Assembly (NCBI GenBank): GCA_964633875.1
Contig: CAZWKL010000001.1
Coordinates: 117,530-181,529 of the forward strand
Source: an uncultured Pseudomonadales bacterium
Lineage (GTDB): Bacteria > Patescibacteriota > Microgenomatia > UBA1400 > PJMF01
Direction of reading: 5' to 3'
DNA length: 64,000 nucleotides
Shown here one piece after another: positions 4,913-60,414 of the stretch. Each line of letters starts with the position of its first letter. Within the stretch, counting starts at the first letter, position 1. Below the pieces are notes generated by a model. That model was not told the origin of the DNA and did no database searches. It was given only the letters and a program-made list of their open reading frames with translations. Made by a program: the position numbers and the translations under genes.

Positions 4913-4940
4913 CAAAAGCTGGAGTTTTGTCAGGAGTACC

Positions 4941-5609: not shown

Positions 5610-5629
5610 AAAAAGCGAGTAATTGCGTT

Positions 5630-5869
5630 ATGATAGCCATGACCAATATGGCAAAAATTCCTTTATCCAAATCTCCCCAGTCTCCGGATCGCAAACAGTT
5701 GTTGGAGGAACGACTGCGAAATTCAATTGAAGAACGGCGAAAACTGGTTGCCATGGAAAGCTCAGAAATGGAAACTGTTCAGCAGTACGCCAAGCGAAAG
5801 GGCGGTTTTGTGGCTCGCAGCATTAACAGATTACAGCAACTCCTCAAGGAAGATGAAACCCAGATATGA
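5630..5869 (+). CDS. Small hypothetical protein (79 aa)
   Basis: ORF overlaps the following helicase start by 4 nt (ATGA), suggesting translational coupling. Charged, helical composition. No recognisable domain. Confidence 0.3.
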   Translation: MIAMTNMAKIPLSKSPQSPDRKQLLEERLRNSIEERRKLVAMESSEMETVQQYAKRKGGFVARSINRLQQLLKEDETQI

Positions 5870-8800
5870 CTTTTGAGGCAGTTTACGCCCGGCTTAATCC
5901 AGAGCAAAAAAAAGCGGTTGATACCACCGAGGGCCCGGTGATGGTAGTAGCCGGTCCGGGCACGGGCAAAACCCAAGTTTTAGCCGCCCGCATCGCCAAT
6001 ATTCTTCGCCAAACCGACACCAAGCCTCACAACATTTTAGCCCTAACTTTCACTGAGTCGGCCGCCAAAAATATGCGCGAACGGGTGGTGCGGATGATCG
6101 GCAAAACTGGCTATTATGTTCAAATTAGCACTTTTCACTCTTTTTGCAGTGAGATTATTCGCTCCAATCCCGAGTTTTTTCCTATCGACAGAGGCAGCGA
6201 GCCGCTAAGTGATCTGGAACGCTACGATCTTTTTCAGTCAATTATCTATGATTTGGATTTGTTGGCAATCAAGCCGATGACGATGAAGCTTTACTACATT
6301 CGCGACATTATGAGAGGAGTTTCCGATCTTAAAAGAGAAGGTGTTTCTCCTGAAGAATTTGCCAAAATTGTCGCTAAGGAAGCAGCGGCATTTGAAAATG
6401 AGAAGCAGGAATTGAGTCAGGCCGTGGCTAAGCGCCGGGAAAGTAATTTGAAAAAGCAGCAAGAGCTGATCTTGGTTTATCAAGAGTATGAAAAACGTTT
6501 GCGAGCCAGGCTGCGGTATGACTTTGACGACATGATTATTCTGGTGGTTCAGGCGTTCAAAGAGCATGAGTTACTGTTGAGGGAGTATCAGGAAAAGCTG
6601 CATTATTTTTTGGTGGATGAGTATCAGGATACTAATAATGCGCAAAATATGGTGGTGGACTTGCTGGCGGGGTATTGGGGTGAGCAGGCCAATATTTTTG
6701 TGGTGGGTGATCCGCACCAGGCTATTTACCGGTTTCAAGGCGCTTCGGTAGAAAACATGTTGGGGTTTATTGATAAGTATGATGAGGCGCTGGTGGTGAC
6801 CCTGGCAACGGGGTACCGGTGTTTTGGTTCTGTTTATGATGCCGCCCACACCTCGATTACTCACAACGAACTCACCAGCGCCGAAGCTTTCAAGATTAAA
6901 CAACACCAACAAACCATGGAAGAAGCGCTCAACAAAAAGCTGCTTAGTCCCAAAGGCCAGGGAGAAAAAATTCGCGTTTTTGACGCGCCCTCACAAACGG
7001 TGGAGCTGATCTATGTGGCCGAGCAGATCCAAAAGCTCATTGCTGCTGGTGTGTCACCGGAAGAAATTGCCGTGCTTTTTCGTCATAATCGCGATGTAGT
7101 TGAGTTGCAAGAAATTCTGGAAAAATGGTTGATACCTTATGAAATCGATGGCGGCGCCAATATTTTGGAGGCCGAGGAGATCCGCCAACTGCTAGAGTTT
7201 TTTGCTGTCATTGATGGCATTGGTAAAAATGAAGATGAAAGCAATCTTTTTGAAGTGATGTGTTACGAGTGGCTCGGGTTGGACAAGTTGCTGGTAATGA
7301 AAATTGCCAGAGCCGCGGGCGCCGCCAAACTCAGCATTATCGACACCATTTTAGCCGGTTATGACCATTTTCAAGCCAAACTTGAAGCTAATGGTACTTC
7401 CAGGGAGGAATTTGCTCGCCTAGAGCTTTTCGTCGAGAAATTAATGCTTTGGGCTAGCCAAGACGCACAACTGGTTTTCCCCCAATGGTTTGAACTGATC
7501 ATCACTGAGAGTGGTTATCTGGACTGGATTTTGCAGCATGAAGCTAAAATTGAGTTGTTGACTAACCTGAACTCGCTTTATCGGGAAGTAAAATCTCTGG
7601 CTGGCAGCAGGCGGAGACTGCGGCTGCGGGATTTTTTGGAAACTGTCGAGATCATGTACGAACACAAGATTTCTCTTCAGGCAGAGGATTTGAACGTGAC
7701 TACCGGCGCGGTCCGGCTTTCCACCGTCCACAAAGCCAAAGGCCAGGAGTGGCAGCACGTGTTTGTTATTCACTGTCTTGATGGCAAGTGGGGCAATAAT
7801 CACCGGCGCGAACTTTTACCTTTGCCTGAGGGATTGATCAAAAATACTGATCTGTCTAAAAAAGAGTTGAATGAAGACGAGCGGCGGCTGTTTTATGTGG
7901 CTATCACTCGGTCTAAAGGCACGGTGCAACTGAGTTATCCACAGACGATTGTGGCCGGCAACAGCTCGAAGGAAGTGGTTGGCAGCATGTTTATTACGGA
8001 AATTGAGCCAGAGGTGGAACGAGTTCCTGAAACTGAAACCAAGCAGTTTTTTGCGTCAGCCCAGGAGAGCTTAGCCAAGCTGCTTTTACCGGCCGATGTT
8101 TCAAAAAGAAGTATTTCGGAAGAAGAATTTTTCAAAAAAATTGTCAGCACGATGCCGCTGTCTGTGACCGCTCTCAACACCTACCTGAAAGATCCCCAAG
8201 AATTTGTTAACAATGTGCTGCTGAGAGTGCCGAGAGCAAAGGCTACGCCTATGGCTTTTGGGACGGCCATTCATAAGGCTTTAGAAGAGTATTTCAAGCA
8301 CTTTCAACAACACAACTCACCTCTGGAATTAGAAAAACTGCAGGCGATTTTTACGGAGAGCTTGAGTAAAGAATTGATCAACCCCGAAGATTTTGTCCGC
8401 CGGCTTGAGTATGGGCACAAAATTTTGGCAGCCTACCATGAGCAGAACAATTTTGAAAATATCAAACCATTGTTTATTGAGCGATTTTTTGGTACCGGTT
8501 TTAGTAAAACCATGCTTGGTGATATCCGCTTAACCGGTCGGATAGACCGGGTGGATTGGATAGATACAGCCAGTAAAACCGTTAGAGTTATAGATTACAA
8601 AACCGGTGTGCCCAAAACTATTGGGTTTATTGAAGGTAAGACTAAATCGGTTAAGCTTTCCGAGCGCGAACAACTCCTTCCTGACAGCATTAAGGGGCCA
8701 TACAAACGTCAGCTTTTATTTTACAAACTATTGACAGATTTGGATCCCACTTTTATTCCCACCGTTACTGAAGGGGTTTTTGATTTTGTGGAGCCGGACA

Positions 8801-8940: not shown

Positions 8941-10290
8941 TTAGTTTTTCCAACTTTTGATGATAAAGTAAACTGAATCGGCAAAATCAGGGCTAACAGC
9001 AATGTTGGTCCAGTGAGGATACCAAATCGCAAAATTAACTGCAATCAACACCACCGCCACTAAGCTGATTTTCTTGACCAGAGGGCGCTTTTTTTCTATC
9101 CACATTTGCCAAAGCCAGTAAGCCAAGATGATACAGAGCAAGGGCACTGCCGGAGTGTAATGATAAAAGAACATAATTCGTGGCGAAAACTGCCAAGGTA
9201 ACCAAACGGCTAAATAAACGGCCAGTAGATATAATAATGGCAACCCGCCCTTGGTTTTGCCTTTTTTGACCAAGAGATCACCCAGCGTCCAGAGTATCGT
9301 TGCCGCTCCCAACCAAAACAACAGCGGGTTGCCAACAGCATAAATATTGCCTTCCTTGTCCGATGCCTGCCTTTCTACTGCAATCCAGACAGGTTTTAGG
9401 TTTAAGAACCATTGCCAAGGCTTTGATTGAGCGGGGTGAGTAGCTTCTAAATTGATCTGATAACGCCAGGTTTGATTGTGCATTTCAATCAAGTGTGTTA
9501 AATCCTTGCCTTGCCAGAACATTTGTGCATAGCTCAATAAATAAATAAATGCCGGCACTACCACCAAAGAGGCAGCAATTTTGGCCAGATTGAGCATCGC
9601 AACTCCTACATTTTTTTGGAAATTTTTCTTGGTTAAATAAAATTTGCTCAAGATTACTGCTTCTATCAATCCGGTAATCAGCAAAGCAAACACCCCCGAC
9701 CATTTGGTGGCGGTAGCCAGACCTCCGGCCACTCCGGTCAAGAGCAACCATTTTGAAAACTGATATTGACGCCGGCCATACTTAATCAGCTTCAAGTGTT
9801 TGAAGTAAAACAAAAGCGTTAGCAGGATAAAAAAAGCCACATGAATATCATTCATGGCAATTCTAGACATAACTAAAAGTAAGCCATCAAAAGCAGCCAG
9901 CAACGCCGCCAGTAAACTTAAAGCTTTGTTTTCAAAAAGTTCTTTAGCCAAGAGTGCTGTCAGCCAAATTATCGCCGTACCAAAAAGAGCGGAACTAAAC
10001 CTCCAGGAAAAAGCGTTCTCACCTAGGGTATAGATAAAAAACGCCTGAGTGTACTTAGCCAGCGGTGGGTGCAACCAATCCACCGCAGTGTCAGGTTCTG
10101 GAGGCGGATTCCACCACTCAAAAGCGCGCGGATCGTTGCGCGCCATTAGTTTAGCGGTGGCAGCGTGATAAACCTCATCAAATATATACGTCACCGGTTT
10201 ATGAAGCAGAAAAACTCGGCTCACAAAAGCAAACAGCAGGATTAGCAGCAAAATAGTCGAGTAATATCGATCAACATTTATTTTGATCAT
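8941..10290 (-). CDS. GT-C fold membrane glycosyltransferase, GT39/PMT-like (polyprenol-phosphate-sugar dependent)
   Basis: Multi-TM protein with a first-loop FDEVYH acidic motif and HPP motif, as in protein O-mannosyltransferase / ArnT-like enzymes. Confidence 0.65.
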   Translation of the reverse strand: MIKINVDRYYSTILLLILLFAFVSRVFLLHKPVTYIFDEVYHAATAKLMARNDPRAFEWWNPPPEPDTAVDWLHPPLAKYTQAFFIYTLGENAFSWRFSSALFGTAIIWLTALLAKELFENKALSLLAALLAAFDGLLLVMSRIAMNDIHVAFFILLTLLFYFKHLKLIKYGRRQYQFSKWLLLTGVAGGLATATKWSGVFALLITGLIEAVILSKFYLTKKNFQKNVGVAMLNLAKIAASLVVVPAFIYLLSYAQMFWQGKDLTHLIEMHNQTWRYQINLEATHPAQSKPWQWFLNLKPVWIAVERQASDKEGNIYAVGNPLLFWLGAATILWTLGDLLVKKGKTKGGLPLLYLLAVYLAVWLPWQFSPRIMFFYHYTPAVPLLCIILAYWLWQMWIEKKRPLVKKISLVAVVLIAVNFAIWYPHWTNIAVSPDFADSVYFIIKSWKN

Positions 10291-10291
10291 T

Positions 10292-11251
10292 TTAAGAAAG
10301 GACGTAAATAATAATCATCACTGCCAAACCAAAGAGAGAAGCAATGGCCAAAAGCGGCCGGTCAGTCAACAACACTTTTTCCGGTGACTCGCCGCGATTG
10401 TTCTCATAAACCAGCTGCAGATACCGCATAATCCCCAAAATCACGAAAGGCAAGGAAAACATCAGTAATTTTTGCGACTGCAAAGCTTTGGGCAAATAAG
10501 TGTAGAGATTTAAAAAGCGATGATCGGGGGTATCTATCTCATTTTGAAAAGCAAAAAGCGCAAAAGTTAGCCAGGTTGAATTAGCGAACATGCCCGTATA
10601 CTGATCCAGCAATCGTTGACTGTACCTTTTGAGCGCCTTACGAGTTGGCCCTACCTCTTCCGCCCGGTTTTTCATTAGGGTTCTTTCGCTTTGTCGTTTG
10701 CCCACCGCCAAGAAGAGTGAGGCGGAAATCACCGTCAACAAAAACCAAACATTCATATGCAGATTGACCACCACCGCACCGGCATAAATTCTGATCAAAA
10801 AACCGGTAGCAATTGAACCCACATCTAAAATTGGAATATGTTTTAGTTTGGTAGCATACAAGATTTGCAGTAATAAATAGCCAAGCAGCATCAATCTAAA
10901 GAAAACCGGAAACCAAAATGATGCCAGCAATACCACTGACAAACCAATCACCACCGCCAGCATGGCCACTTCCTTGGGTAATTTACCGGAAGCAATCGGC
11001 CTATTTTTTTTCACCGGGTGCTGTCGGTCTGCTTCGTAATCAATGATGTCGTTAATGAAATAAACAGTTGACGTTAGAACAGAAAATAATATGGCTGCCA
11101 AAGTAACAATAGTGAAATATGACAAGCCGTCAGGGGGGTCATAAAAGAAGAACCCGGAAAATACTAAAGTGGCATAGAGTGAAAGGTTCTTAATCCATTG
11201 CACCGGTCTGGCGGATTTAATTAGTAGCGCCAAGATGTTGCTGTCACTCAT
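10292..11251 (-). CDS. UbiA-family prenyltransferase, DPPR-synthase-like (decaprenyl-phosphate phosphoribosyltransferase-like)
   Basis: NDIIDYEADRQHPVKKNRPIASG (NDxxDxxxD plus a PIASG box), about 8 TM helices, 319 aa. Confidence 0.7.
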   Translation of the reverse strand: MSDSNILALLIKSARPVQWIKNLSLYATLVFSGFFFYDPPDGLSYFTIVTLAAILFSVLTSTVYFINDIIDYEADRQHPVKKNRPIASGKLPKEVAMLAVVIGLSVVLLASFWFPVFFRLMLLGYLLLQILYATKLKHIPILDVGSIATGFLIRIYAGAVVVNLHMNVWFLLTVISASLFLAVGKRQSERTLMKNRAEEVGPTRKALKRYSQRLLDQYTGMFANSTWLTFALFAFQNEIDTPDHRFLNLYTYLPKALQSQKLLMFSLPFVILGIMRYLQLVYENNRGESPEKVLLTDRPLLAIASLFGLAVMIIIYVLS

Positions 11252-11254
11252 TGT

Positions 11255-12328
11255 TTATGCTTTCTCCCGTGCCTGTAGGGTTTTCCATTTTGCCCAAATT
11301 AAGAAGCCAAAAACTCCTACAACAACCAGGGTGATAGTGACTATTTTACCAATTGTATTCAAGTAAAGCGAAAGGATTCCCAGAACTAAGCTGGCAAACC
11401 AGTAAAATACGGCAATTTTTCTCTTACTCCATTTTAAGACGTCAAGTAATTTATGGTGTAAATGTCCACGGTCTCCCCACAAAGGTGATTTTCCTGCTCT
11501 GATTCGGCGTAAAATGGTGAAAATAGCATCCGCGGTGGGTACTGCCAACACCATCAGGGTTGTAGCCACTTTAGCGCCGCTGATAATCGCCAAAATGCTG
11601 AGAAAATATCCGGCTAAGGAACCAGCGCCATAACCGGGCATAATTTTTTGCGGATACCAGTTCCAAAGCAAAAAACCGGCGTAAGCTCCAGCAATGATAA
11701 AACTAAAGTGCGCAGTGTCGAATTGAGTGGGGTCATCAATAAATCTCAACGATAAAATGCCGACAAATATCAGAGCAATAGCCACAAATCCGGGCATTTG
11801 TCCATCCAAACCCTTAGACCAATTAACAATATTCATGTTCCATAAAATAAAAATCAAAGCAAACAAATCAGCCAGCACCCAGATTGTTCTGGTTCGGCCG
11901 AAGATATCGATGGCTAGTTGAGGATGATTGAGATGAATTACTCCCGCGCTGAACGGGTCACTGATGTAAGCGATCCCGATACCGGAACCGACCACTATTA
12001 AAGCCGCTGCCAGGCCGGTTAGCAGCCTAATTAAAGGGTGAATATCAAAAATATCATCAAAAATTCCTACTACAGTTAGTAGTAACGCTCCCGCCATGAT
12101 GGCAATGAGGTAGCGATCAACTTGGAGGAAAAGCAAGGCGGCCATCAGGATGCTCAGGAAAATTACAATGCCGCCGCCTCTGGGAACGGGTTTGGAGTGG
12201 GTGTTTTTCAATCTAAGCTTGGAATTGTGTTCTCCCAGCCAATGATTTTTTCGATACCACTTGATTACCAATGGCGCAAGGCCGGCTGCAATTATAAAAG
12301 TGAAGATAAAACCAAGCATGGCTACCAA
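11255..12328 (-). CDS. Glycosyltransferase family 4 polyprenyl-phosphate sugar-1-phosphate transferase (WecA/MraY family)
   Basis: Multi-TM protein with IFDDIFD (DDxxD) and NMNIVNWSKGLDG motifs. Confidence 0.8.
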   Translation of the reverse strand: MVAMLGFIFTFIIAAGLAPLVIKWYRKNHWLGEHNSKLRLKNTHSKPVPRGGGIVIFLSILMAALLFLQVDRYLIAIMAGALLLTVVGIFDDIFDIHPLIRLLTGLAAALIVVGSGIGIAYISDPFSAGVIHLNHPQLAIDIFGRTRTIWVLADLFALIFILWNMNIVNWSKGLDGQMPGFVAIALIFVGILSLRFIDDPTQFDTAHFSFIIAGAYAGFLLWNWYPQKIMPGYGAGSLAGYFLSILAIISGAKVATTLMVLAVPTADAIFTILRRIRAGKSPLWGDRGHLHHKLLDVLKWSKRKIAVFYWFASLVLGILSLYLNTIGKIVTITLVVVGVFGFLIWAKWKTLQAREKA

Positions 12329-12696
12329 GTAATATATATGATTCTTAACAAAGCCAACAGTAAAAGAAACTGAATCACTACGGTGAAGAATCCAAACAAC
12401 CTCAGCAAAATAATTTCATAGTCTTTCATGGCTGAGAGTAATAAAAGGTGGATGAAATTAATTGCAAAAGCTATGCCCGGAAACAAAAACAACCAAGGTT
12501 TAGTTGCCAGCTGCTGGTTGGGTTGAGCCAGAGAATAAAACATCGGCACTGCGGGTTGAGCAGCAATAAAGTATGAAACAGCAGCTACAGTAATCAGCAG
12601 CGAAATGGCAACAGAATAAGACAGTGGTTTTTTGGCAGATTCAGGAATGACAAACTTTGGCAATCTGAAAAAGGTTCGCTTAACTATTTTCATCAT
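12322..12696 (-). CDS. Hypothetical small membrane protein (3 TM)
   Basis: Hydrophobic 124-aa ORF overlapping both neighbours in the minus-strand operon. Confidence 0.35.
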   Translation of the reverse strand: MMKIVKRTFFRLPKFVIPESAKKPLSYSVAISLLITVAAVSYFIAAQPAVPMFYSLAQPNQQLATKPWLFLFPGIAFAINFIHLLLLSAMKDYEIILLRLFGFFTVVIQFLLLLALLRIIYITW

Positions 12697-14353
12697 TTGC
12701 TATTCTACGCCACAGGATATAGTTGTCAAAGGTCGCTGCTGGCCGGTAGTGAGCATGAAGATAAGTGTAAAAATCAGGGAAATTGTAGCCTTCACTTTTC
12801 ATCACCACGATATAGCGCGGAGCTTCCTCAACCACTGCCTCCATGGTTTGGTCATAAACTTCCAGGTCTTTGATGTGAAAGGCTACCGTAAATTTTCCCA
12901 CCGGACTGGCTCCGGATTGGGCATAAAGCATCGGGTTGGTGCCCCAAACAAAAATTTTGTTTTCGCCTGAGGCTCTGATGATTTTTGCGGCGGTATAGTT
13001 ATCGTCCATCAGATAATTAAAACGGCGATTATACTCCTGAACACTTATTTGGCCGGTTCTGAGTTCCCACCAGTTTTGGTAATAGGCTTTGACGGGGTAA
13101 ACTCCAACCTGCAGTAGGAGCATCACCGTCCCAAACAAACCAACCCCACCAAGCGTAGCTAACCAGTTACCAGCCATGGAAAAATTAAATTGCTTTTTCT
13201 TTCTAATAACATCAAATAAATCATTGAAAAATATACCCATCAAAAGACTAAGCGGGGGCAATGCTTGCAGGAAATAATGTGGATATGGGCGGTTAGAAAG
13301 CAAACTGGCAAAAAGCGCCAAAATAAACCAGGCCAGTAAAAACTGGATGCCGGGTTTGAACAACTTTTTAAAAAAGGCGGCCAGCAAAATTAGCGCTGTC
13401 GCAATAGCAAATTTTCCCTGAAGGGTAAAAGCAAAAATAAGCAACCGGTTATCAAAAGGCAGTCCCCAGTTGCCGGCGTAATGGAAATTGTAAAGCAGGC
13501 CATACTGTAAGTAATCCGCCCCCGAGCCCTTGGCCACGAAGTACAGGGCCGAAACCACAATAGGAATCAGTATGCCGGCAATCAATAATCCCCACTGCCT
13601 GATCACCCTAAGCAAGAGCGGTCGCCACTTTTTCATTTGCTTGGGTGCGAAGGTAAAAGTGTTAGCCAAAATAAAGAAGCCGATAGTACCAAAAGCCGCA
13701 AAATCAAACAAGGCCGGCACTTTGGTTAAAACACCCAACCCAAAAGCCATGCCGGCGCCAAGCAGTAGCCAGACTTCTTTTTTATCAAGCTTGAGCGCCG
13801 TTTTTGGTTTGACCAACTTAGCAAAGTAACTCGAGTATGATACTAGCACCGCGCCCAGCATCACTAAGCCAATTACGAAAAGTTCACCATTGGGAATGTT
13901 GCCCTCAAACCAGGGCAAGGTAGTGAAAAGAGCAAAAATAATTGTGGCTATTCCTGCGGCCAGTCGCCTTTGAGAAAGTCTGAGAGCAAAAAGGTAAAAC
14001 AAAACTGTGGTGGCGCTCATCCAGAAAAAATTAAGAATCCTAAAATTAAGCTGAGTGCCCACTTGAGCCAACCAATAAATAATGGGTGTTTTGTGGTCTA
14101 CGATGTCAGTATAAAGTTGGGCGCCTTTATTCAAAGCCTGGCCAATGGTGAGGTAAATGCCTTCATCGCCGTACCAGTAAGGTTCGTAAAAATTGGGCAC
14201 TCTTAATATCACCACCAGGCCCAGTGCCACCAACAGCAAGGCGTGTTGATCCAAAAATTTATCTAACTTTTTGATGGACTTGAGGGCATTTGCTAACACA
14301 AAAACAGTATACTGAGGTTTTTTAAGAATGGAAAGTATGGAACTCATTGCCAA
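12680..14353 (-). CDS. GT-C fold membrane glycosyltransferase (ArnT/PMT-like, COG1807-type)
   Basis: About 12 TM helices, a YWYGDEGIY acidic first-loop motif, and a C-terminal soluble domain. Confidence 0.55.
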   Translation of the reverse strand: MAMSSILSILKKPQYTVFVLANALKSIKKLDKFLDQHALLLVALGLVVILRVPNFYEPYWYGDEGIYLTIGQALNKGAQLYTDIVDHKTPIIYWLAQVGTQLNFRILNFFWMSATTVLFYLFALRLSQRRLAAGIATIIFALFTTLPWFEGNIPNGELFVIGLVMLGAVLVSYSSYFAKLVKPKTALKLDKKEVWLLLGAGMAFGLGVLTKVPALFDFAAFGTIGFFILANTFTFAPKQMKKWRPLLLRVIRQWGLLIAGILIPIVVSALYFVAKGSGADYLQYGLLYNFHYAGNWGLPFDNRLLIFAFTLQGKFAIATALILLAAFFKKLFKPGIQFLLAWFILALFASLLSNRPYPHYFLQALPPLSLLMGIFFNDLFDVIRKKKQFNFSMAGNWLATLGGVGLFGTVMLLLQVGVYPVKAYYQNWWELRTGQISVQEYNRRFNYLMDDNYTAAKIIRASGENKIFVWGTNPMLYAQSGASPVGKFTVAFHIKDLEVYDQTMEAVVEEAPRYIVVMKSEGYNFPDFYTYLHAHYRPAATFDNYILWRRIANDENS

Positions 14354-14372
14354 ACCCCACTCATCCTACTGT

Positions 14373-15893
14373 TTAAACTTTTTCAGTCACTTTGTACTCA
14401 ATATACTTGCCTAGCATCAACCGCGTGTGAGCGTCAATTCCCGGCAAGGCAGAAAAGAAAAAGCCGACAATAGGCAAGAGGAAAAATTCAAGCGGCTGTA
14501 AAATATAAGAAAGCGGATTTTTGCGGTTGGGGCGCGGCGGTCTATTTAAAGCATCAATCACAAAAATCACCACCATCGAAATCAGGGCCATAGTTAGCAA
14601 AGTAGAAGTAACTTGCGGCAGTGTTTTCCCTAGGACAGTGCGATTAAACTCTTCATTTAAAAGTGGCGGCAAGAAAGCGGAGATAGTAATGGCAAACCAG
14701 TTCACCGGCCAGAGGAAATGATCCTCAATCGTTTGTGAAACCCTAATAGTTTTATCCAGAAAAGGAATGTCTTTGGCCTCAATATATTTGCGGATAATAT
14801 AAGCATCATCACTAACACCCCAAGCCCAGCGCTTGAGTTGCTCATATTGATTGACAAAAGTCCCCCACCAACTCGAAGACTCGGCAGCATCGGCATAAAT
14901 AGGCAGAAAAATCGGCAACACTTCAAAATCTCCTTTTTTGGCAAAATAAGACTTAAAGAAAAGCCGGTAATCTTCAGGAATGACATCGGTGTCCCAGTAG
15001 CCAATTTCGTGGACATGTTTGAGCGAAGTCGAGTAAGTAGAAAAATTGATCAATCTATCCGAGCGCATTAAAATATGCATTTGAATGACTGAGAACATCG
15101 AAGCCAGAACTCTCACTGGTGCCGGCACTCGCCAAATGTTGTTGTAAAAAACAATCGCTCCTTGCCAAATGGCATTAAAAGGTTTTTTGGTGGCAAGAAA
15201 ACTATGAGTGAAGGCGGCAAAATAATGTTTGTGAAACTGGGCATCGGCATCTTCGCTAGTAATAGTGATGTTTTCTATTGGCATACCAATTTCATCAACC
15301 AGTTTTCTCTTGGCAATTTTCGCCCCCCAACAAGTATTGGAAGATTTGCCCTTCACTTCTCCTTCAATATCCGGATGCTTGGTAGTCCACAAGTTGCCGA
15401 ATTTACCTTTGAATTGTTGTTCTATCTTGGCTGCTTTATCAGTCGCGTCCTGACCTTCTCGCTCTTCAAACGAAACCATAATATGAATATTTTTTCGCGG
15501 ATAACTTTGCTTAGAAAGTGCCAAAATCGTTCGCTCTAAAATTTCCACTGGTTCTTTATAGGTGGGAATGACCACAATATGATGAATAGAGTTCCATTTT
15601 TTGGGAAAGGTTTTTTTCAGATTTTCTACCCAGTCAAACCTGGAAGCGGCCTTAATCCTGAAATGAGCTACTACGGCCAGCACCGCCATAGTTAGTGAGC
15701 GAAAAAGCCAATAAACCGCGAAAGCAATGACGTAATAAGCTACCAGGGTGGGAACAAAAAATGAACCCCAGAAAGGAAAGAGGATCAGCGACCAAGAAAA
15801 CAAGCCCGGCAAAATTTCCAGCCCGCGCTGGGTTTTGACCGGATGGCGTTTAACGTATGTTCTAAGCCAATTTCCCATATCTTCCTTACTCAC
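14373..15893 (-). CDS. Processive family-2 glycosyltransferase (cellulose/chitin-synthase-like, membrane-embedded)
   Basis: VVIPTYKEP, D,D,D motifs and QYEQLKRW (QxxRW), with TM helices at both ends. Confidence 0.75.
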   Translation of the reverse strand: MSKEDMGNWLRTYVKRHPVKTQRGLEILPGLFSWSLILFPFWGSFFVPTLVAYYVIAFAVYWLFRSLTMAVLAVVAHFRIKAASRFDWVENLKKTFPKKWNSIHHIVVIPTYKEPVEILERTILALSKQSYPRKNIHIMVSFEEREGQDATDKAAKIEQQFKGKFGNLWTTKHPDIEGEVKGKSSNTCWGAKIAKRKLVDEIGMPIENITITSEDADAQFHKHYFAAFTHSFLATKKPFNAIWQGAIVFYNNIWRVPAPVRVLASMFSVIQMHILMRSDRLINFSTYSTSLKHVHEIGYWDTDVIPEDYRLFFKSYFAKKGDFEVLPIFLPIYADAAESSSWWGTFVNQYEQLKRWAWGVSDDAYIIRKYIEAKDIPFLDKTIRVSQTIEDHFLWPVNWFAITISAFLPPLLNEEFNRTVLGKTLPQVTSTLLTMALISMVVIFVIDALNRPPRPNRKNPLSYILQPLEFFLLPIVGFFFSALPGIDAHTRLMLGKYIEYKVTEKV

Positions 15894-29578: not shown

Positions 29579-29675
29579 TTTTCCATTTGCTTTTTTTGTT
29601 TAGTTTAGTACGGATTATGCTAGAAACTTGGTTTATGCTCCAGGGCAGTAATATTTAACCCAAGGAGGCTAGCTC

Positions 29676-30230
29676 ATGAAATCAATCATCAAGAGCTTAT
29701 TAACAATTATTACCGTTTTGGTGCTGTCGATAGGAGTAACATCAGCTTACTTTACCAGTCAGGCTACGGCTAATCCGGTGGTGTTTCCCAGTGGAACAGT
29801 CGATATTATTGTTACCCAGCAAGTTGCTGATGGAGACGATGATCTTTGGCCCGGTAGTAGTCATATTTTTGAATTTATAGTCCAAAATACAGGCACTTTG
29901 CCGGTAAATTTAAAGGGTTATTTTTCTGGGGAATGGAGCAATCCAGAATTATCTACGGACTTAATTTCATTTTCCAATTTTCAGGTTCTGAGCGGCGGTG
30001 ATTGGCATCCTATGCATGTTGGTGGCTTGATGATCGGTCAAGAAACCGAGCTGATTGACACCTTCACCGGTTCTAATGTTTTGTCTTCGGGGGAACACAA
30101 GGTTTACAGAATTACCATGGGTCTTGACGAGACTGCAGGTGATGAGTATCAGGGAGAGCATTTGACCCTGGGATTGCATGTGGCGGCTAAACAAATTAAT
30201 GATGGGGCAGATTGGCCTGCCGAGTATTAA
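29676..30230 (+). CDS. TasA/camelysin-like secreted protein with SipW-cognate-class signal peptide
   Basis: The signal peptide ends in the AYFTS motif. The mature region (FPSGTVDIIV...FEFIVQNTGTLPV) resembles the TasA/camelysin N-terminal beta region. Immediately upstream of SipW. Confidence 0.6.
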   Translation: MKSIIKSLLTIITVLVLSIGVTSAYFTSQATANPVVFPSGTVDIIVTQQVADGDDDLWPGSSHIFEFIVQNTGTLPVNLKGYFSGEWSNPELSTDLISFSNFQVLSGGDWHPMHVGGLMIGQETELIDTFTGSNVLSSGEHKVYRITMGLDETAGDEYQGEHLTLGLHVAAKQINDGADWPAEY

Positions 30231-30282
30231 TAAACTGGAGTTGGGGCGGCGCTTTTCAAGCGCCACCCACCAAAACACAAAA

Positions 30283-30750
30283 ATGAAAAAATTACTTCTC
30301 ACAATTACAACTTTAACTTTTTTAGTCACACTTGGTTTAGTGTTGCACTACAATTTCCGCATCCATTTAGTTAAATCCGGCTCAATGGAGCCGGAGATCA
30401 ACAAAGGCGATCTTATTATCACCGGAGGAAAAGATCATTACCAAATTGGCGACATTATCACTTTCCAACACGATCAAGGCAGGGTCACTCACCAAATTGC
30501 CGCCATTCAAACCCGCAACTCAATCACCAGCTTTCAAACCAAAGGCTTAGCCAACTCTGCCGCGGATAAGGAGTTGGTAAAGCTATCGGATGTCATCGGA
30601 GTCGTTAGGTTTGTTATTCCTAAACTAGGCGTCATTCTCCTGCTGCAGGAAAAGTATTATGTAGTTGCCGCTGTTTGGGTTATCAGTCTATTGATCATTG
30701 TTCTAGAGATACAAGAACTGGTTGCAAAATTAAAAGGGGCGGGCGCGTGA
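30283..30750 (+). CDS. sipW: Signal peptidase I, SipW type (archaeal/ER-type S26B)
   Basis: N-terminal TM then the catalytic Ser box VKSGSMEP, with a C-terminal TM. The start was set at the internal ATG 30283 (MKKLLL). Confidence 0.8.
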   Translation: MKKLLLTITTLTFLVTLGLVLHYNFRIHLVKSGSMEPEINKGDLIITGGKDHYQIGDIITFQHDQGRVTHQIAAIQTRNSITSFQTKGLANSAADKELVKLSDVIGVVRFVIPKLGVILLLQEKYYVVAAVWVISLLIIVLEIQELVAKLKGAGA

Positions 30751-31835
30751 TGCAGATGGTTGCCCGGTTTTTGCTATCCTTATTACTTTTGTTGTTGCTT
30801 GTTGTTCCGCCCGCCCACGCCTATTTTTCGGCAATTGCGAGCACGATTTTGTACATGGGCACCTTTGAGTATATCTATGCTGAACCAGACTTAATTCATC
30901 AAAGAAGCGGCGAAGCATTTATTCCGATCGAGCTAATTAACAACTCCTGGGAGCCTGTAGGAGACGTGACCACAGAGCCAGCCTGTTTCGAGAACGAACC
31001 ATGTTTTATTTTGGGAGGCAGTCAAGAAAATTATGAAAACGCTGCAACTATTACTCAAAATATCGAAATCGGTGAGGCTCATCCCTCAACACTGGTTTTT
31101 GCTCTCAAGACCGATTACTCAGAATACTTGCCTGGTTTTGACAGCCCATACTTTCAAGTGTTTATTAACAACCTCAATATCTATGAGGAACATTTTTCCA
31201 CCACCATTCCCAACGGTGGTTGGAGACAAATTTTTCTCCCTCTTCCTAATCTCGATCCAGGCATACACACAATAACTTTTGTTCAACAAAACACCGGCGA
31301 TGATCAATTTCCCTCCATTGTTAGTTTGGCGGCCATTTCAACCGATGCTATTTTATTCGGCAGCCAAGATAAGATCATCATCACCGGATCCAACAACAAC
31401 CTCATATCTGCCCAAGTGTTCAAATCAAACGGCTCTGAAACCTACCTAGCCACAACTCAACTAACTCTTGGCCTCGAAGTACTGAATCAAGCTACAGGCT
31501 TAGAATATTGGCCTGAAAATAATCCGGAAAGATCGGTGCAGATAAATTTATCAGCAGATTTATCTACCCCGGATCCTGCTGAAGTCACGCGCTTGGCCAT
31601 TGAGCATGACCAGCAATTATCTTTAGTCATTAACCAACCCGATGATGCTTACGCCTATCTGCTGAGCGCCGAAAATTTAGCAGAGATCATCCGCCTTTTT
31701 CCTGCTGCTAAATTTAAAAATACAACAGTATTAACCATTCCAATTAATTTGCTTAATTATGAATATCCAACCCTAACTGTCATGAACAGGGCAGGCAATG
31801 CTTCTCCGCCGACCAGCTTGAATAGTCCGCCATAA
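30750..31835 (+). CDS. Secreted protein with SipW-cognate-class signal peptide (possible TapA-like accessory/anchor protein)
   Basis: The start ATG overlaps the sipW stop (TGATG). The signal peptide LLLLLLLVVPPAHAYFSAIAS carries the AYFS motif. 361 aa, beta-rich, Asn/Thr-rich. Confidence 0.55.
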   Translation: MQMVARFLLSLLLLLLLVVPPAHAYFSAIASTILYMGTFEYIYAEPDLIHQRSGEAFIPIELINNSWEPVGDVTTEPACFENEPCFILGGSQENYENAATITQNIEIGEAHPSTLVFALKTDYSEYLPGFDSPYFQVFINNLNIYEEHFSTTIPNGGWRQIFLPLPNLDPGIHTITFVQQNTGDDQFPSIVSLAAISTDAILFGSQDKIIITGSNNNLISAQVFKSNGSETYLATTQLTLGLEVLNQATGLEYWPENNPERSVQINLSADLSTPDPAEVTRLAIEHDQQLSLVINQPDDAYAYLLSAENLAEIIRLFPAAKFKNTTVLTIPINLLNYEYPTLTVMNRAGNASPPTSLNSPP

Positions 31836-31883
31836 GCTGAGATACTTGTTTGTGTTATAAAAAGTGGTCATAATAATTCGACG

Positions 31884-32954
31884 GTGATATCTGCTCTGAA
31901 TAAAACATTAGCTCACTTATTTCGACCCGGCCGCTCCAACAATCATCGGCCACGACTTTTGCATCCTGAGTTGCTTTTTATTCTTTCTTTTTTAGTAGTT
32001 GTTTTTGGCTCAGCTGTCTATGTTGAGGCCCTACGCTATCAACCGCTTGAAAATATTTTGGGTTATGCCTCCAACATCAACCCAGACGATGTTGTGCGTC
32101 TTACCAATGCTGAGCGAGCCAAACAAGGCCTGCATGAGCTTACTTTCAACTCCACACTAGCAGCAGCCGCCCAAGCCAAGGGGCAGGACATGTTTAACAA
32201 TCAATATTGGGCTCACACTTCACCAACAGGCAGAGAACCCTGGGATTTTATGAATGAGTCTGGGTATAGTTACCGCGTGGCAGGCGAAAATTTAGCCAGA
32301 GATTTTATGACCACTACAGCCATGATAGATGCCTGGATGGCTTCGCCAACCCATCGCGCCAATGTCGTTAATTCACGTTATACAGAAATTGGCATAGCAG
32401 TCATCAACGGCAATTTACAGGGGGTGGATACAACCTTAGTAGTACAAATGTTTGGTACGCCAAGAGCTGTGGCCGCTGTACCTACTACCACCAACCAAGC
32501 CGTGCAGACAACCGACAACGCCAACACTCAACTGCCATCAGCTCCACCAAATATCAATCCCCCAACTGTGGAACCACCGGCCCCAAATCCCACTACCAAT
32601 CCCATAATTTATCAGGACGGCGAAACCGAGTTGGTCAGTCTTGATGCTTCTCGTCTCGCCAACAATACTATTCAGCCAACTTCGGTCACCCCGACCAATC
32701 CTCCTCAAGTCTTAGCGCAATTTTTAGTCCCGATTGGAGAAATTAACCCTCACATCCTGTTTTCCCCAAGAGAGCTGGCTAAAGCTTTTGCTTTGGCGGT
32801 TAGTATTTTGTTATTGTTGGTTTTGATATATGATCTACACCTTTCCAACAAACACCATACAGTGAGGTTGGTGGGTAAGAATTTGGGCCATATCATGCTT
32901 TTTCTCACGGTGGTATTTTTACTAATTTTCTTAAAAGGAGGAGTGGTGGGCTAG
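31884..32954 (+). CDS. CAP/SCP/PR1-like domain protein with N-terminal anchor and C-terminal TM
   Basis: The stretch LTNAERAKQGL...AQAKGQDMFNNQYWAHTSPTGREPWDFM...GENLARD...AWMASPTHRANV matches a CAP (YkwD-like) domain. Pro/Thr-rich linker, C-terminal TM. Confidence 0.6.
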   Translation: MISALNKTLAHLFRPGRSNNHRPRLLHPELLFILSFLVVVFGSAVYVEALRYQPLENILGYASNINPDDVVRLTNAERAKQGLHELTFNSTLAAAAQAKGQDMFNNQYWAHTSPTGREPWDFMNESGYSYRVAGENLARDFMTTTAMIDAWMASPTHRANVVNSRYTEIGIAVINGNLQGVDTTLVVQMFGTPRAVAAVPTTTNQAVQTTDNANTQLPSAPPNINPPTVEPPAPNPTTNPIIYQDGETELVSLDASRLANNTIQPTSVTPTNPPQVLAQFLVPIGEINPHILFSPRELAKAFALAVSILLLLVLIYDLHLSNKHHTVRLVGKNLGHIMLFLTVVFLLIFLKGGVVG

Positions 32955-32955: not shown

Positions 32956-33213
32956 ATGAGAAAAGAATTTTTGCACCACTATCTGGCCTATACTATTTTA
33001 GTTTTGGCGTTAGTACTGATTGTTTTGAGTTTTTTCACGGTTTGGCCAAATGTCATTGCTCAAAGGTATCTCATCTTAATTCTCAGCGCCTTTTACTTTA
33101 TGTGGGGAGTAATTTCACACACTAAAACAGACCACATTACTACCAAGGTTATTGTTGAGTACTTGGCTGTTTCAATCTTGGCCGGGCTTTTGCTATCACT
33201 GGTGACCTTTTAA
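32956..33213 (+). CDS. Hypothetical small membrane protein (2-3 TM)
   Basis: Hydrophobic 85-aa ORF starting 2 nt after the previous stop. Confidence 0.35.
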   Translation: MRKEFLHHYLAYTILVLALVLIVLSFFTVWPNVIAQRYLILILSAFYFMWGVISHTKTDHITTKVIVEYLAVSILAGLLLSLVTF

Positions 33214-49459: not shown

Positions 49460-49483
49460 TTCAGTTTATCGTGCAGCTAAGCA

Positions 49484-49513
49484 CTAAAAAAAGCCCTCCT
49501 GAGGGGCTTTTTT
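49484..49513. terminator. Bidirectional intrinsic terminator (A7-GC-rich hairpin-T6)
   Basis: The sequence aaaaaaagccctcctgaggggcttttttc forms a GC stem flanked by A-tract and T-tract. It lies between the start of the minus-strand 510-aa gene and the aspS leader. Confidence 0.6.
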
Positions 49514-49649
49514 CACAAAGGTACACCCCTCAGTTACCTAATACTAAGCGTAAAAATAACTCGAGAGAAATGCCTTAATTTGTGCATTTTTGATTAAATT
49601 CTACTTTTAATTACTATGTTTAGTCGTCGTCGGCAAGGCCATACGTTAT

Positions 49650-49899
49650 GTAAGCAAATTGTATCAAGATTTAGCTGATTGTCAACCAGGCTAAGATTAG
49701 TTAAAATAAAGTTATAATACAAAAGCTTTTTGTTTGGGTGACGCCAAACAGCCACTTGGCAAGCGCTCAGGGTCGCAACTGAGCCGGGTAAGCCCGTGAC
49801 AGCAGGAATGAAGGCAGCCTCCAGCTGTATTGAGAGGTGGCACCGCTTTTACTCGAAAGCCCTCTTAGAACCATCGCGGTGGTTTTAAGAGGGCTTTTT
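49650..49899 (+). promoter_or_regulatory. T-box riboswitch-like leader of aspS (T-box motif, antiterminator/terminator, GAC-A specifier candidate)
   Basis: T-box-like tgagaggtggcaccgc at 49831-49846 (consensus AGGGUGGNACCGCG). Downstream gcggtgg can pair with it as an antiterminator. Mutually exclusive perfect 11-bp terminator aagccctctta/taagagggctt plus T5 at 49857-49899. Candidate specifier GAC followed by A at 49798-49801. The 5' boundary is uncertain. Confidence 0.5.
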
Positions 49900-49934
49900 G
49901 GCTTTTAATTGATACTTAAACGAAGAAAGGAAAC

Positions 49935-52427: not shown

Positions 52428-53720
52428 ATGAACTTAACAATAATTGGAACCGGATTTGTTGGGGTTGTTTCTGCGGCAGTTTTTGCCTCTTTTGGTAATA
52501 AAGTTATTGGTCTTGATATTGATGAAAACAAAGTTTTAGCTTTGGAAAAAGGTGAAGTTCCGTTTTATGAGCCAAGCTTGCCGGAACTACTGCTTCAAGA
52601 GGTAGGGGTTGGCCGGTTGAGTTTTACTACCAATTACAAAAAAGCTATTGAAGACGCCGATATTATCATCATTGCGGTGGGTACGCCGTCTACGCCTGAA
52701 GGAAAGGCCGATCTGTCTTATGTGAACGCTGCCGCGGAGTCTTTGGCGCCATTTATCAAAAAAGAGGCCATTGTGGTGGTGAAATCCACTGTTCCTCCTG
52801 GCACACTTGATCTGGTTCAGGCTGAAATTAAAAAACACACCAAGACCAAGTTTTACTTGGCTTCCGTACCTGAATTTCTCAAAGAGGGTAGCGCGGTTGC
52901 CGACACTTTGCACCCGGATAGGGTGGTTTTGGGGGCAGTTGAAAATGAGGTTTTTGAGAAGTTGGAAGAACTGCACGCCCCTCTCCAAGCTCCAGTGGTG
53001 AGAATGAGTCCTGAATCAGCCCAGATGACCAAGTATGCGGCCAATGCTTATTTGGCCACCAGAATTACTTTCATCAATGATATCGCGGACTTGTGCGAAC
53101 ACAACAGCGCCGATATCGAGGATGTCATTAAAGGCATCGGTTTTGATAAGCGCATCGGTAGTCATTATTGGTATCCGGGATTGGGGTATGGCGGCTCCTG
53201 TTTCCCCAAGGACGTGAGGGAGCTGTCATTTTATTCTCGAGAAGTGGGTTTGGAGCAGAACTTATTGAATAAAGTTAATGAGCTAAATGAACTGAGAATC
53301 CCCAAAATTTTGCATAAAATTAAAACTGAGGCGAGCGGCATTAAAGGCAAAAAAGCCGCTGTGTTGGGACTGGCTTTCAAGCCTAATACCGACGACATGA
53401 GAGAGGCTCCCAGCACCAAAGTGATTCCTTGGTTGTTGCAAGAGGGCGCATTGGTGACGGGTTATGATCCCAAGGCTTTGGAGGCAGCCAAAAATCTTTT
53501 TCCGAACCAAGACAACCTAACTTTTCACAACAGTGTCGCTGACGCGGCTGTAGATGCTGACATTATTTTTTACCTGATCGAGTGGCCGGAAATTGTTGGT
53601 TTTGATTTATTGTCTGTGAGAGACAAAAATAAAGAGCAATGGGTGATTGATGCTCGCAACCAGCTGGACCGCTCTCAGGTGGAGGGCGCGGGCTTTAATT
53701 ATTTGGGAATAGGAAGATAG
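52428..53720 (+). CDS. ugd: UDP-glucose 6-dehydrogenase family (nucleotide-sugar dehydrogenase)
   Basis: N-terminal Rossmann IIGTGFVG and a catalytic GGSCFPKD Cys motif. 430 aa. Confidence 0.85.
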   Translation: MNLTIIGTGFVGVVSAAVFASFGNKVIGLDIDENKVLALEKGEVPFYEPSLPELLLQEVGVGRLSFTTNYKKAIEDADIIIIAVGTPSTPEGKADLSYVNAAAESLAPFIKKEAIVVVKSTVPPGTLDLVQAEIKKHTKTKFYLASVPEFLKEGSAVADTLHPDRVVLGAVENEVFEKLEELHAPLQAPVVRMSPESAQMTKYAANAYLATRITFINDIADLCEHNSADIEDVIKGIGFDKRIGSHYWYPGLGYGGSCFPKDVRELSFYSREVGLEQNLLNKVNELNELRIPKILHKIKTEASGIKGKKAAVLGLAFKPNTDDMREAPSTKVIPWLLQEGALVTGYDPKALEAAKNLFPNQDNLTFHNSVADAAVDADIIFYLIEWPEIVGFDLLSVRDKNKEQWVIDARNQLDRSQVEGAGFNYLGIGR

Positions 53721-53721
53721 C

Positions 53722-54675
53722 ATGACCAGAATTCTCATTACCGGCGGCACCGGCTTTGCCGGTTCTCATTTGATCGAGGCCTTATTGAATGAGGGCTATG
53801 AAGATATTTATGCTACTTCGTATGGCCAGGTGCCCTCAGAGTTGAAACACCTGCTTCCCGAACATCATTTTCACCAAATTGACTTGACCGACGCGACGGC
53901 CACCACCGCTCTCATCAAAGAAATCCAGCCTGACCACATTTATCATTTAGCCTCTTTTGCTTTTGTCGGCGAGAGTTTTGCCAGAGCTGGCGAAGTTTTT
54001 CAAAATAATGTCACCCTGCAAATCAATCTTCTTGATGCAGTTAGAGAACATTGTCCCGGCGCCAGGGTTTTAATTGTTGGTTCTGCGGAGGAGTATGGTA
54101 TTAGCGAATCACCCAATGAGCTGCCCATCAACGAAGAACACCCTTTGCGTCCGGTTAATCCCTACGCGGTCTCAAAAGTGACTCAAGATTTATTAGGCTA
54201 CTCTTTCGGCAAATCGTTCAATCTGCAAATTTTGCGAGTCAGACCTTTCAATCATATTGGTGAAAGGCAAACTACCGATTTTGTTGTTCCCGCTTTTATC
54301 AGTCAAGTTGTAGCTATTGAGAATGGTAAACAAGACGTGCTGAGGGTAGGCAACCTCAACTCGGTGCGGGACTTTACGGATGTTAAAGATATGGTCCGCG
54401 CTTACATCACAGTCATGGAAAAGGGTCTGCCGCTGGAAGTTTATAACATTGGTAGTGGGCAGGGTATCAGCATGGCAGAGTTGTTAGAAAAGATTAAAGC
54501 TTTGGCTAAAACTGAAATCATTGTTGAAGAAGATCAAAGCAGAATGCGGCCGGCCGACATTCCGGAAATGGTGGCAGATCCTAGTAAAATTAAACAACTA
54601 GGCTGGCAGCCGCGTATATCTTTGGACGAAACTATCAGGCGAGTATTTCAAAGTATCAGGAAAGTAAAAATATGA
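53722..54675 (+). CDS. NAD-dependent epimerase/dehydratase, likely GDP-4-keto-6-deoxy-D-mannose reductase (Rmd-like)
   Basis: [12 protein letters not shown] Rossmann motif and a YxxxK SDR catalytic pair (YAVSK). Immediately upstream of, and overlapping, gmd. Confidence 0.65.
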
Positions 54676-55649
54676 AAAAAGCCTTTATTACCGGTATCAC
54701 CGGACAAGACGGATCGTACCTGGCTGAGTTTTTGTTGGATAAGGGTTACCGGGTTTATGGCATGACCAGAAGAACCAGTACCCAAAACTTTGCCCGGATT
54801 CAGCATATTATTCATAACGAAAATTTGGAGCTGGTTTCAGGAGATCTGGTTGATCAGCACTCAATTACTTACGCGCTTCAGGAAATTCAGCCGGATGAAA
54901 TTTATAACTTAGCTGCCCAGTCTTTTGTCAAAGCCAGTTGGTCGCAGCCGGTTTTAACGGGGGAGTTCACCGCCATTGGTGTCACTCGGGTTTTGGACGC
55001 GATGAAGCTGGTTTGTCCTCAGGCGAAGTTTTACCAGGCCAGTTCGAGTGAGATGTTTGGCAAAGTGCAAGAAGTGCCGCAAAATGAGAACACGCCGTTT
55101 TATCCGCGCTCTCCCTACGGGGTAGCCAAAGTTTACGGTCACTGGATTACGGTTAATTATCGTGAGTCTTTTGATATGTTCGCGGTTTCCGGGATTTTAT
55201 TTAATCATGAGTCTCCTCGACGTGGCTTGGAGTTTGTGACCAGAAAGATCGCTAACGCAGTAGCTAGAATTAAACTGGGCAGACAGCAGTTTGTGGAACT
55301 CGGCAATCTTGATGCCAAAAGAGACTGGGGTTACGCCAAAGATTATGTTGAAGCCATGTGGCTGATGTTGCAACAGGAAGAACCGGAAGATTATGTTATC
55401 GCCACCGGAGAAACTCACTCAGTGCGCGAGTTTTTGGACTTGTCTTGTCAAGCCGCGGGGCTGGACAATTGGGAAAATTATTACCGGCACAACCCGGAAT
55501 TTGACCGGCCGGCAGAAGTGGATTTGCTAGTGGGCGATGCTACTAAGGCCAAAGAAAAATTCGGCTGGCAACCGAAAGTTACTTTTGAAGAGCTGGTGAG
55601 TTTGATGGTAGAAGCTGAAATCAAGAAGGAAAGCAAGAGATCTGAATGA
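54672..55649 (+). CDS. gmd: GDP-mannose 4,6-dehydratase
   Basis: N-terminal [21 protein letters not shown], catalytic YGVAK, and C-terminal [12 protein letters not shown] typical of Gmd. Confidence 0.9.
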
Positions 55650-56833: not shown

Positions 56834-56839
56834 CGGTAT

Positions 56840-58384: not shown

Positions 58385-58387
58385 TGT

Positions 58388-60410: not shown

Positions 60411-60414
60411 AGCT

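Follow-up and report, generated by a model that had tools for sequence, protein, structure and literature searches.

A predicted TasA-type fibre locus with a SipW-like signal peptidase and an unannotated secreted accessory protein in an uncultured, probably Patescibacteria-like bacterium

Fibres assembled from TasA-type subunits by donor-strand complementation are a means of building extracellular scaffolds that is found across the domains of life. Here we describe a compact locus in a 64-kb stretch of GenBank contig CAZWKL010000001.1 (positions 117,530 to 181,529 of the forward strand, part of a 294-kb contig), referred to below as the window. In this locus a gene for a TasA-superfamily protein (P1) is followed by a gene for a SipW-like signal peptidase and by a gene for a secreted accessory protein (P3), and the three together probably encode a TasA-superfamily extracellular fibre system. 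An earlier interpretation, made from the letters and the open reading frames (ORFs) and called here the sequence-only reading, had described the cluster as a TasA-like gene, sipW and a tapA-like gene; its coordinates and the details of the ORFs, of the SGSMEP box in the peptidase and of the TGATG gene overlap were confirmed by direct reading of the sequence.

The tapA-sipW-tasA operon of Bacillus subtilis and the sipW-tasA-calY cluster of B. cereus are described systems of this kind. In B. subtilis, SipW cuts TasA between A27 and A28, and residues 28-38, with F29, I32 and F39, have been shown experimentally to form the donor strand, which completes the subunit that follows; the N-terminus of TapA resembles this strand and is predicted to supply the first one (PMC9674648). 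LepB is an inefficient enzyme on substrates with an aromatic P2' residue, and the TasA site resists it (PMC10269814). The window locus resembles the Bacillus operons in having a PF12389 subunit with a predicted jelly-roll fold and a peptidase of the endoplasmic reticulum (ER) type in one cluster, two substrates whose signal peptides end in A/x-F with an aromatic P2' (the slash marks the cleavage site here and below), and an accessory protein that, once mature, has an N-terminus like the donor strand predicted for the subunit. It differs from B. subtilis in gene order, which is subunit, peptidase and accessory protein in the window as opposed to tapA-sipW-tasA, and in the length of the mature subunit (160 amino acids versus 234 for TasA). 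Moreover, P3 has no homology to TapA, the subunit gene of the window is followed by a hairpin, the peptidase reaches only 65.1 bits on the Bacillus SipW equivalog model NF046067 (cutoff 190), and the organism is uncultured and probably Patescibacteria-like.

Archaea provide further parallels. In Pyrodictium abyssi abpX is followed by a TIGR02228 peptidase gene, and TasA-superfamily genes often stand beside type I signal peptidase genes; loci with a TIGR02228 peptidase after such a gene and with lineage-specific accessory proteins have been described (bioRxiv 10.64898/2026.01.04.697558). AbpX and P1 are both compact subunits (mature lengths of 163 and 160 amino acids) whose genes are immediately followed by that of a TIGR02228 peptidase. 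The minimal P. abyssi locus differs in having no P3-like gene, and the AbpX-associated peptidases have ten transmembrane helices (bioRxiv 10.64898/2026.01.04.697558), whereas the window enzyme has an N-terminal transmembrane segment and a C-terminal hydrophobic anchor. Calcium-dependent lattice formation has been described for AbpX. The AbpA/AbpB system of Pyrobaculum calidifontis (PMC9245690) and the haloarchaeal Tafi pili share with the window a TasA-superfamily subunit, of the donor-strand type by prediction in the window, followed by a secreted multi-beta-domain protein, of about 400 amino acids in these systems and proposed there as initiator or adhesin. Their sequences are related to P1 much more distantly, and to P3 no relation can be detected; in addition, the P. 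calidifontis operon has no dedicated peptidase found nearby and export of the Tafi subunits goes through Tat. For Patescibacteria, TasA homologues (PF12389) are already on record (PMC9245690). With these and the TasA-type genes beside TIGR02228 peptidases published, the window locus is a new example and not a new mechanism; new to it are the P3 family with its cognate signal ending, the layout of subunit, hairpin and peptidase, and the kind of organism in which they occur.

A word-indexed homologue search returned three relatives of P1 and two of P3, and searching with the P1 alignment brought in five further, distant TasA-like proteins; the alignment of P1 with eight homologues is termed A2. 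By its sequence P1 is a member of the TasA superfamily, as had been proposed. It passes PF12389 (Peptidase_M73/camelysin) with 29.9 bits against a gathering score of 22.5, and its signal region passes TIGR04088 (SipW-cognate signal peptide) with 26.5 bits against a cutoff of 19 over residues 9-42. Searched against the PDB, the A2 profile matched TasA (8aur, E 3.6e-5; 5of1, E 4.4e-5) and the archaeal AbpX (E 3.6e-4), in alignments that take in both the N-terminal F..GTLD and the C-terminal NEYQG...Q motifs. An AlphaFold2 (AF2) model computed from A2 is all-beta, with a predicted local distance difference test score (pLDDT) of 80-90 in the core, and a Foldseek search of the PDB with this model gave the TasA fibre 8aur_A (E 2.5e-5, probability 1.00) as its single match at E<=1e-3; the bundling pilin of Pyrobaculum, 7ueg, came at rank 36. 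On the strength of this model, the fold of P1 is of the TasA-like jelly-roll or beta-sandwich type, which is the outcome of the jelly-roll check that had been suggested for the 184-residue protein.

The P1 precursor begins MKSIIKSLLTIITVLVLSIGVTSA/YFTSQ..., with predicted cleavage at TSA/YF after Ala24. In the A2 profile, residues 25-40 of P1 align with residues 28-42 of TasA, such that A24/Y25-F26...F37..G40-T41 stands opposite A27/A28-F29...F39..G42-T43, and A24, F26 and G40 are invariant throughout A2. In the monomer model the first 37 residues are disordered and the donor-strand segment has a pLDDT below 50. From the alignment we infer that residues 25-40 are the donor strand freed by cleavage and, by analogy with TasA, that P1 polymerises into fibres by donor-strand complementation.

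The product of the middle gene scores 88.9 bits on the ER/archaeal-type model TIGR02228 (cutoff 51.85), in agreement with its description as an archaeal/ER-type signal peptidase I, and falls below threshold both on the bacterial P-type model TIGR02227 (27.8 bits, cutoff 47) and on the SipW equivalog. By these scores it is an enzyme of the same type as Bacillus SipW and not its orthologue. Its best sequence match in the PDB is human SEC11A (E 1.6e-9), for which S56, H96 and D122 are the established catalytic triad (bioRxiv 10.1101/2020.11.11.378711). These residues align with S34, H70 and D95 of the window enzyme, which are invariant in five homologues, so that the alignment points to an intact Ser34-His70-Asp95 triad. 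The longer starts proposed by gene callers, 30178 or 30199, cross the hairpin and run into P1; position 30283 was taken as the start because the resulting 155-residue form is near-complete on TIGR02228 (positions 7-151 of 158) and aligns from its first Met with four homologues.

P3 begins MQMVARFLLSLLLLLLLVVPPAHA/YFSA..., with predicted cleavage at AHA/YFS. It has no match at E<=1 in Pfam or NCBIfam, TIGR04088 included; hence, of the two SipW-cognate signal peptides claimed by the sequence-only reading, that of P1 is borne out by the model, while P3 shares the A-Y-F ending only. A phmmer search, run exhaustively against 1.84 billion cluster representatives, returned 31 relatives at E<=1e-3, mostly 290-400 amino acids long, one of which originates from a Rifle groundwater data set. 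Among 21 aligned family members (A5), 13 have a signal peptide that closes with [A/S][Y/F]F, in one and the same column. Conserved motifs of the mature proteins are E.L.GFD.P.F.V (GFDxPxF), W...L and NTGD, and many members have a first strand of the form NG.F...L.GW, through which the family profile weakly matches the domain of the Cry1Ac protoxin that is like a carbohydrate-binding module (CBM; E 1.3e-3). Weak matches in the C-terminal half of a few members are to the small beta-barrel of the OmpL47 type (best 33 bits, cutoff 40) and to Big_13. The domain assignment is based on such weak family-level matches; because of these, and since no model matches, P3 is described here not as TapA but as a secreted protein of an unannotated family that is probably multi-domain and mostly beta. 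The designation tapA-like thus holds for gene position and signal type and does not hold for homology. Two identities were considered and rejected: P3 as a TapA homologue, in view of the absence of any Pfam or NCBIfam match and of relatives that form a separate family, and P3 as a second TasA-like subunit, as hhalign aligned P3 with the P1 family over the signal peptide and AYF only (probability 9.6%). The mature N-terminus of P3, YFSAIAS....GT, resembles that of P1, and P3 is a candidate terminal fibre subunit, whether nucleator, anchor or adhesin.

Five co-directional ORFs on the + strand occupy the region from 28.4 to 33.3 kb of the window, namely SppA, P1, the peptidase gene, P3 and a gene for a CAP-domain protein, followed by a short ORF (Table 1). 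P1 and P3 are the only real ORFs in the window in which an N-terminal hydrophobic stretch is followed by [AGS][YFW]F[ST..], and the window contains no paralogue of P1, P3 or the peptidase elsewhere. A strong Shine-Dalgarno sequence precedes P1, whereas the start of the peptidase gene has none. The peptidase stop codon (TGA, 30748-30750) overlaps the start codon of P3 (ATG, 30750-30752) in the TGATG at 30748-30752. Promoter and terminator consensus scans of the window gave counts not above those in shuffled sequence.

Nearly all of the 52-nucleotide spacer between P1 and the peptidase gene is taken up by a hairpin, GGGGCGGCGC-TTTTCAA-GCGCCACCC, which begins 12 nucleotides past the P1 stop and ends 14 nucleotides ahead of the sipW ATG. 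The stem-loop noticed from the letters is a real one, with limits that shift inwards from the 30241-30270 first given. Its minimum free energy is -19.4 kcal/mol (z -3.9; none of 200 shuffled sequences reaches it), which places it among the four strongest 36-nucleotide hairpins on the + strand of the window. It is not a canonical Rho-independent (intrinsic) terminator: no U-tract follows the stem (3' sequence ACCAAAACACAAAAATG) and a consensus terminator scan makes no call. No Rfam family matched it in a relaxed search. Stem-loops are known after major-pilin genes, for example papA in the pap operon of Escherichia coli, where likewise a stable hairpin comes right after the gene for an abundant subunit and before genes whose products are required at a low level; the protein families and the assembly pathway of that operon are unrelated to those of the window.

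Comparison with related loci shows how far this arrangement extends. The identical P1 sequence is present on several metagenomic contigs, and a 95% identical P1 is encoded at locus L008, on a contig of a metagenome-assembled genome (L012/L008 contig CAZESB010000002.1). The more diverged locus L004 has 52% identity to the window for P1, 42% for the peptidase, 30% for P3 and 65% for the CAP protein. In both, the order SppA, P1, sipW, P3, CAP, an 85-residue ORF and a nucleoside triphosphate (NTP) transferase gene is kept. Against L008, the ratio of nonsynonymous to synonymous substitution rates (dN/dS) is 0.02-0.20 over all genes of the block, indicative of purifying selection, which argues that these genes are real and constrained. 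The values are 0.10 for P1, 0.11 for the peptidase, 0.20 for P3 and 0.02-0.07 for the neighbours, P3 being the fastest-evolving and least constrained gene. This low constraint, together with the 30% identity to its L004 counterpart, fits an exposed protein that determines an interaction.

Loci L013 and L014 encode distant TasA-like proteins (28-31% identity), each immediately followed by a TIGR02228 peptidase, so that beyond the window and L008 the order of TasA-like gene and sipW recurs in three diverged loci (L004, L013 and L014). A P3-like gene adjoins the TasA-like gene in L004, L008 and L015. In L015 the P3 relative (about 21% identity) stands right after the TasA-like gene, between SppA and CAP. 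The P1-P3 and P1-sipW pairings thus each occur in several lineages. The hairpin also recurs. L008 has a perfect-stem variant of it, and hairpins of unrelated sequence occupy the same spacer in L004 (z -6.5), L013 (z -7.0) and L014 (z -5.2); that of L014 lacks a U-tract and the tail of that of L013 is only moderately U-rich. Retention of the position without conservation of the sequence argues for function, and the recurrence in three diverged loci supports a role in expression. The hairpin probably ends or stabilises the P1 transcript or attenuates read-through, the most economical interpretation by analogy being partial termination or 3'-end stabilisation of the P1 message.

The proposed mechanism is as follows. 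The P1 and P3 precursors would be exported via Sec, and the SipW-like enzyme would cut both after Ala24 (TSA/YF and AHA/YF); the motifs strongly suggest these two steps. The N-terminal strand of P1 so released would then slot into the beta-sandwich of the P1 subunit that follows, and the product would be a polymer joined by donor-strand complementation, like that of TasA in B. subtilis. P3, having a similar mature N-terminus and no TasA acceptor domain, may donate its strand to one P1 only and so form one end of the fibre. It would thereby take the role proposed for TapA, though unrelated to it, and is probably multi-domain, with CBM-like and immunoglobulin-like parts. By analogy, the strong Shine-Dalgarno sequence of P1, the hairpin and the lack of a Shine-Dalgarno sequence before sipW would jointly yield far more subunit than peptidase or accessory protein.

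Several results weigh against a fibre system. The AF2 model of P1 is moderate only (mean pLDDT 70, template-modelling score 0.49 to 8aur), and the PF12389 match is confined to residues 10-78. For P3, the single-sequence AF2 prediction reached a pLDDT of 36 and gave no usable model, none of the 21 family members matches TIGR04088 at E<=0.1, and the likeness to the P1 family stops at the signal ending. In the peptidase and its clade, the first conserved aspartate of box E (D116 in SEC11A) is replaced by leucine (Leu89); mutation of D116 in SEC11A mainly affects stability and largely keeps activity (bioRxiv 10.1101/2020.11.11.378711), and in archaeal enzymes one of two conserved aspartates is essential and the other is not (PMC2913515). 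Finally, L015 has no sipW within 6 kb of its TasA-like and P3-like pair (region 4500-8400), so the peptidase need not belong to the cluster.

This last observation also favours a different explanation, which we nevertheless consider unlikely, that the peptidase is the cell's general, perhaps sole, type I signal peptidase and that P1 and P3 are ordinary secreted proteins, P1 being a soluble or wall-associated monomer with a matrix or antimicrobial function that forms no fibre. The general signal peptidase of archaea is of this type (PMC2913515), and neither the window nor the 36 of its ORFs that were scanned against Pfam showed a LepB-type motif; however, 64 kb is a small fraction of a genome, and the absence of LepB there says little. 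Moreover, in four diverged loci sipW and a TasA-like gene are closely linked, with the stop/start overlap with P3 as part of this coupling, and the rare aromatic P1'/P2' motif is carried by both neighbours of sipW and by no other protein of the window. The peptidase may be dedicated to P1 and P3, as the sequence-only reading had it. As to the monomer, TasA was first described as a matrix or antimicrobial protein. Monomeric TasA is stable and soluble (PMC9674648), whereas the conservation of the P1 residues aligned with the TasA donor strand speaks for the polymer. The family name of PF12389, Peptidase_M73, would suggest instead that P1 is a secreted metalloprotease of the camelysin type, with P3 as its substrate or partner. 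We regard this as highly improbable, and a camelysin-type protease identity was rejected for want of a metal-binding motif: P1 contains no HExxH or other zinc-binding motif, so that the name camelysin protease implies no function, and H168 is the only histidine invariant among the close homologues, with none invariant across the wider alignment. The structurally characterised members, TasA, AbpX and AbpA, are jelly-roll fibre subunits.

The hairpin, for its part, might be an element of a generic kind, at a transcript end or as an insulator, or else a palindromic repeat that is mobile, with no bearing on the ratio of P1 to SipW. This we think rather doubtful. It has in its favour the missing U-tract, the silent terminator scan, the lack of an Rfam match, the 55 local hairpins that fold at -14 kcal/mol or below on the window's + strand, and the situation in L015, where no hairpin follows the TasA-like gene and the spacer (5901-6001) holds a 30-nucleotide tandem duplication. 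On the other hand, only about four 36-nucleotide windows on that strand reach -18 kcal/mol or stronger, the strong hairpins of unrelated sequence in the same spacer of L004, L013 and L014 are hard to explain without selection, and the hairpin coincides with the switch from a strong Shine-Dalgarno sequence to none. We therefore retain, by analogy, the interpretation that the hairpin and the Shine-Dalgarno contrast may together produce an excess of subunit over peptidase and accessory protein, within what is probably a TasA-superfamily fibre system.

Table 1. Features of the P1-sipW-P3 locus and its flanks (positions in the window)
Feature	Position	Strand	Basis
SppA-type signal peptide peptidase, 368 amino acids, one N-terminal transmembrane segment	28472..29578	+	PF01343, TIGR00706
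Shine-Dalgarno AAGGAGG, strong, 7 nucleotides before P1 ATG	29662..29668	+	direct sequence reading
P1, TasA-superfamily precursor, putative major fibre subunit, 184 amino acids	29676..30230	+	PF12389, TIGR04088, PDB profile matches, Foldseek
P1 signal peptide, residues 1-24	29676..29747	+	
P1 predicted donor strand, mature N-terminus, residues 25-40, YFTSQATANPVVFPSG	29748..29795	+	alignment to TasA
GC-rich intercistronic hairpin	30243..30268	+	folding energy
SipW-like ER/archaeal-type signal peptidase I, 155 amino acids	30283..30750	+	TIGR02228
P3, secreted accessory protein, 361 amino acids	30750..31835	+	signal peptide, own small family
CAP/YkwD-domain protein, membrane-anchored, 356 amino acids	31884..32954	+	PF00188, transmembrane segments
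ORF with two transmembrane segments, 85 amino acids, after CAP gene	32956..33213	+	

The genes on either side of the module are conserved neighbours. SppA matches PF01343 (E 1.9e-35) and narrowly passes TIGR00706 (155.7 bits, cutoff 155.45). The TasA-like gene has it as its immediate upstream neighbour in L004, L008 and L015 and not in L013 or L014; on this syntenic basis SppA may clear the released signal peptides. The CAP protein passes PF00188 with 75.4 bits against 21.1 (residues 71-188, E 8.8e-21) and remains under the cutoff of the YkwD subfamily model TIGR02909 (121.7 bits, cutoff 171). A transmembrane segment (29-47) precedes the CAP domain, and a Pro/Thr-rich linker and two further transmembrane-like segments (298-316 and 337-355) follow it. 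It had been taken for a CAP-domain surface protein; the domain is there, but with three transmembrane segments it is, by its predicted layout, a membrane-tethered extracytoplasmic protein and not a free surface protein. Its gene is syntenic in L004, L008, L015 and L018, with the NTP transferase gene farther downstream. Since unrelated housekeeping genes are conserved there too, the adjacency of CAP and SppA indicates lineage synteny and not a functional link, and nothing ties the CAP protein functionally to the fibre module.

The related loci have some further features of note. At L016 (1182-1778) and L018 (1224-1865), a protein of about 200 amino acids with a C-terminal transmembrane segment is encoded directly after the P3-like gene; in L018 it is followed by CAP, an 86-residue ORF and the NTP transferase. 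The two copies are 30% identical and share only a faint C-terminal motif with the TasA-like family (hhalign probability 2.5%). This protein could be a membrane anchor subunit; the window has no counterpart of it. In L014 the SipW-type peptidase (5753-7330) has 525 amino acids, with the peptidase domain at residues 7-165 followed by an unannotated extension of about 340 residues; a 365-residue protein encoded after this sipW was considered as a P3 relative and rejected as unrelated. Directly upstream of SppA in L004 (1-8341) there is a type I restriction-modification system, absent from the window, with a 506-residue reverse transcriptase (RVT_1) encoded between hsdS and hsdM.

Elsewhere in the window, a gene-free gap of 475 nucleotides (49460-49934) contains three strong hairpins (49499-49534, 49763-49798 and 49859-49894), the last of which is a 16-bp perfect palindrome and, at -25 kcal/mol, the strongest of the window. 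No Rfam family matched the gap at E<=0.3, and it may be an undescribed RNA or regulatory region. Two large glycosylation blocks (8941-15893 and 52428-61953) encode five membrane glycosyltransferases of the PMT family, together with GT2 and GT4 enzymes, UDP-glucose dehydrogenase and enzymes like GDP-mannose dehydratase. This gene content suggests that glycosylation of the surface or of proteins is extensive, and the Pro/Thr-rich linker of the CAP protein could be a target of these enzymes.

The gene content of the window (RNase Y, TasA/SipW, many PMT-type glycosyltransferases and DUF3048, with no outer-membrane genes in Pfam scans of the window ORFs) is a poor fit to a gammaproteobacterium. It points to a Patescibacteria-like monoderm as the source, and the label 'uncultured Pseudomonadales bacterium' on the record of the 95% identical relative is probably wrong.

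Work on attachment in ultrasmall, host-dependent bacteria has centred on type IV pili and, to our knowledge, no TasA-type fibre has been studied in them. The locus is a candidate for a surface fibre other than a type IV pilus in an ultrasmall bacterium, and the fibre might serve in host attachment. A bolder form of this idea, in which the P1 fibre with a lineage-specific P3 at its tip is a host-attachment organelle independent of type IV pili, P3 determines host specificity, nucleation proceeds without TapA and the relation to the host is probably episymbiotic, is speculative and, as we see it, has a small chance of being right. With a 160-residue subunit, a 155-residue peptidase and one accessory protein, the locus provides a compact and testable system. 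Members of the P3 family may stand in functionally for TapA or AbpB and could perhaps act as adhesins, and a simple means of setting the excess of subunit may lie in the recurrent hairpin that follows the gene of that subunit. The locus would thus widen the range of a known mechanism and add an accessory component to it, while leaving the mechanism itself unchanged.

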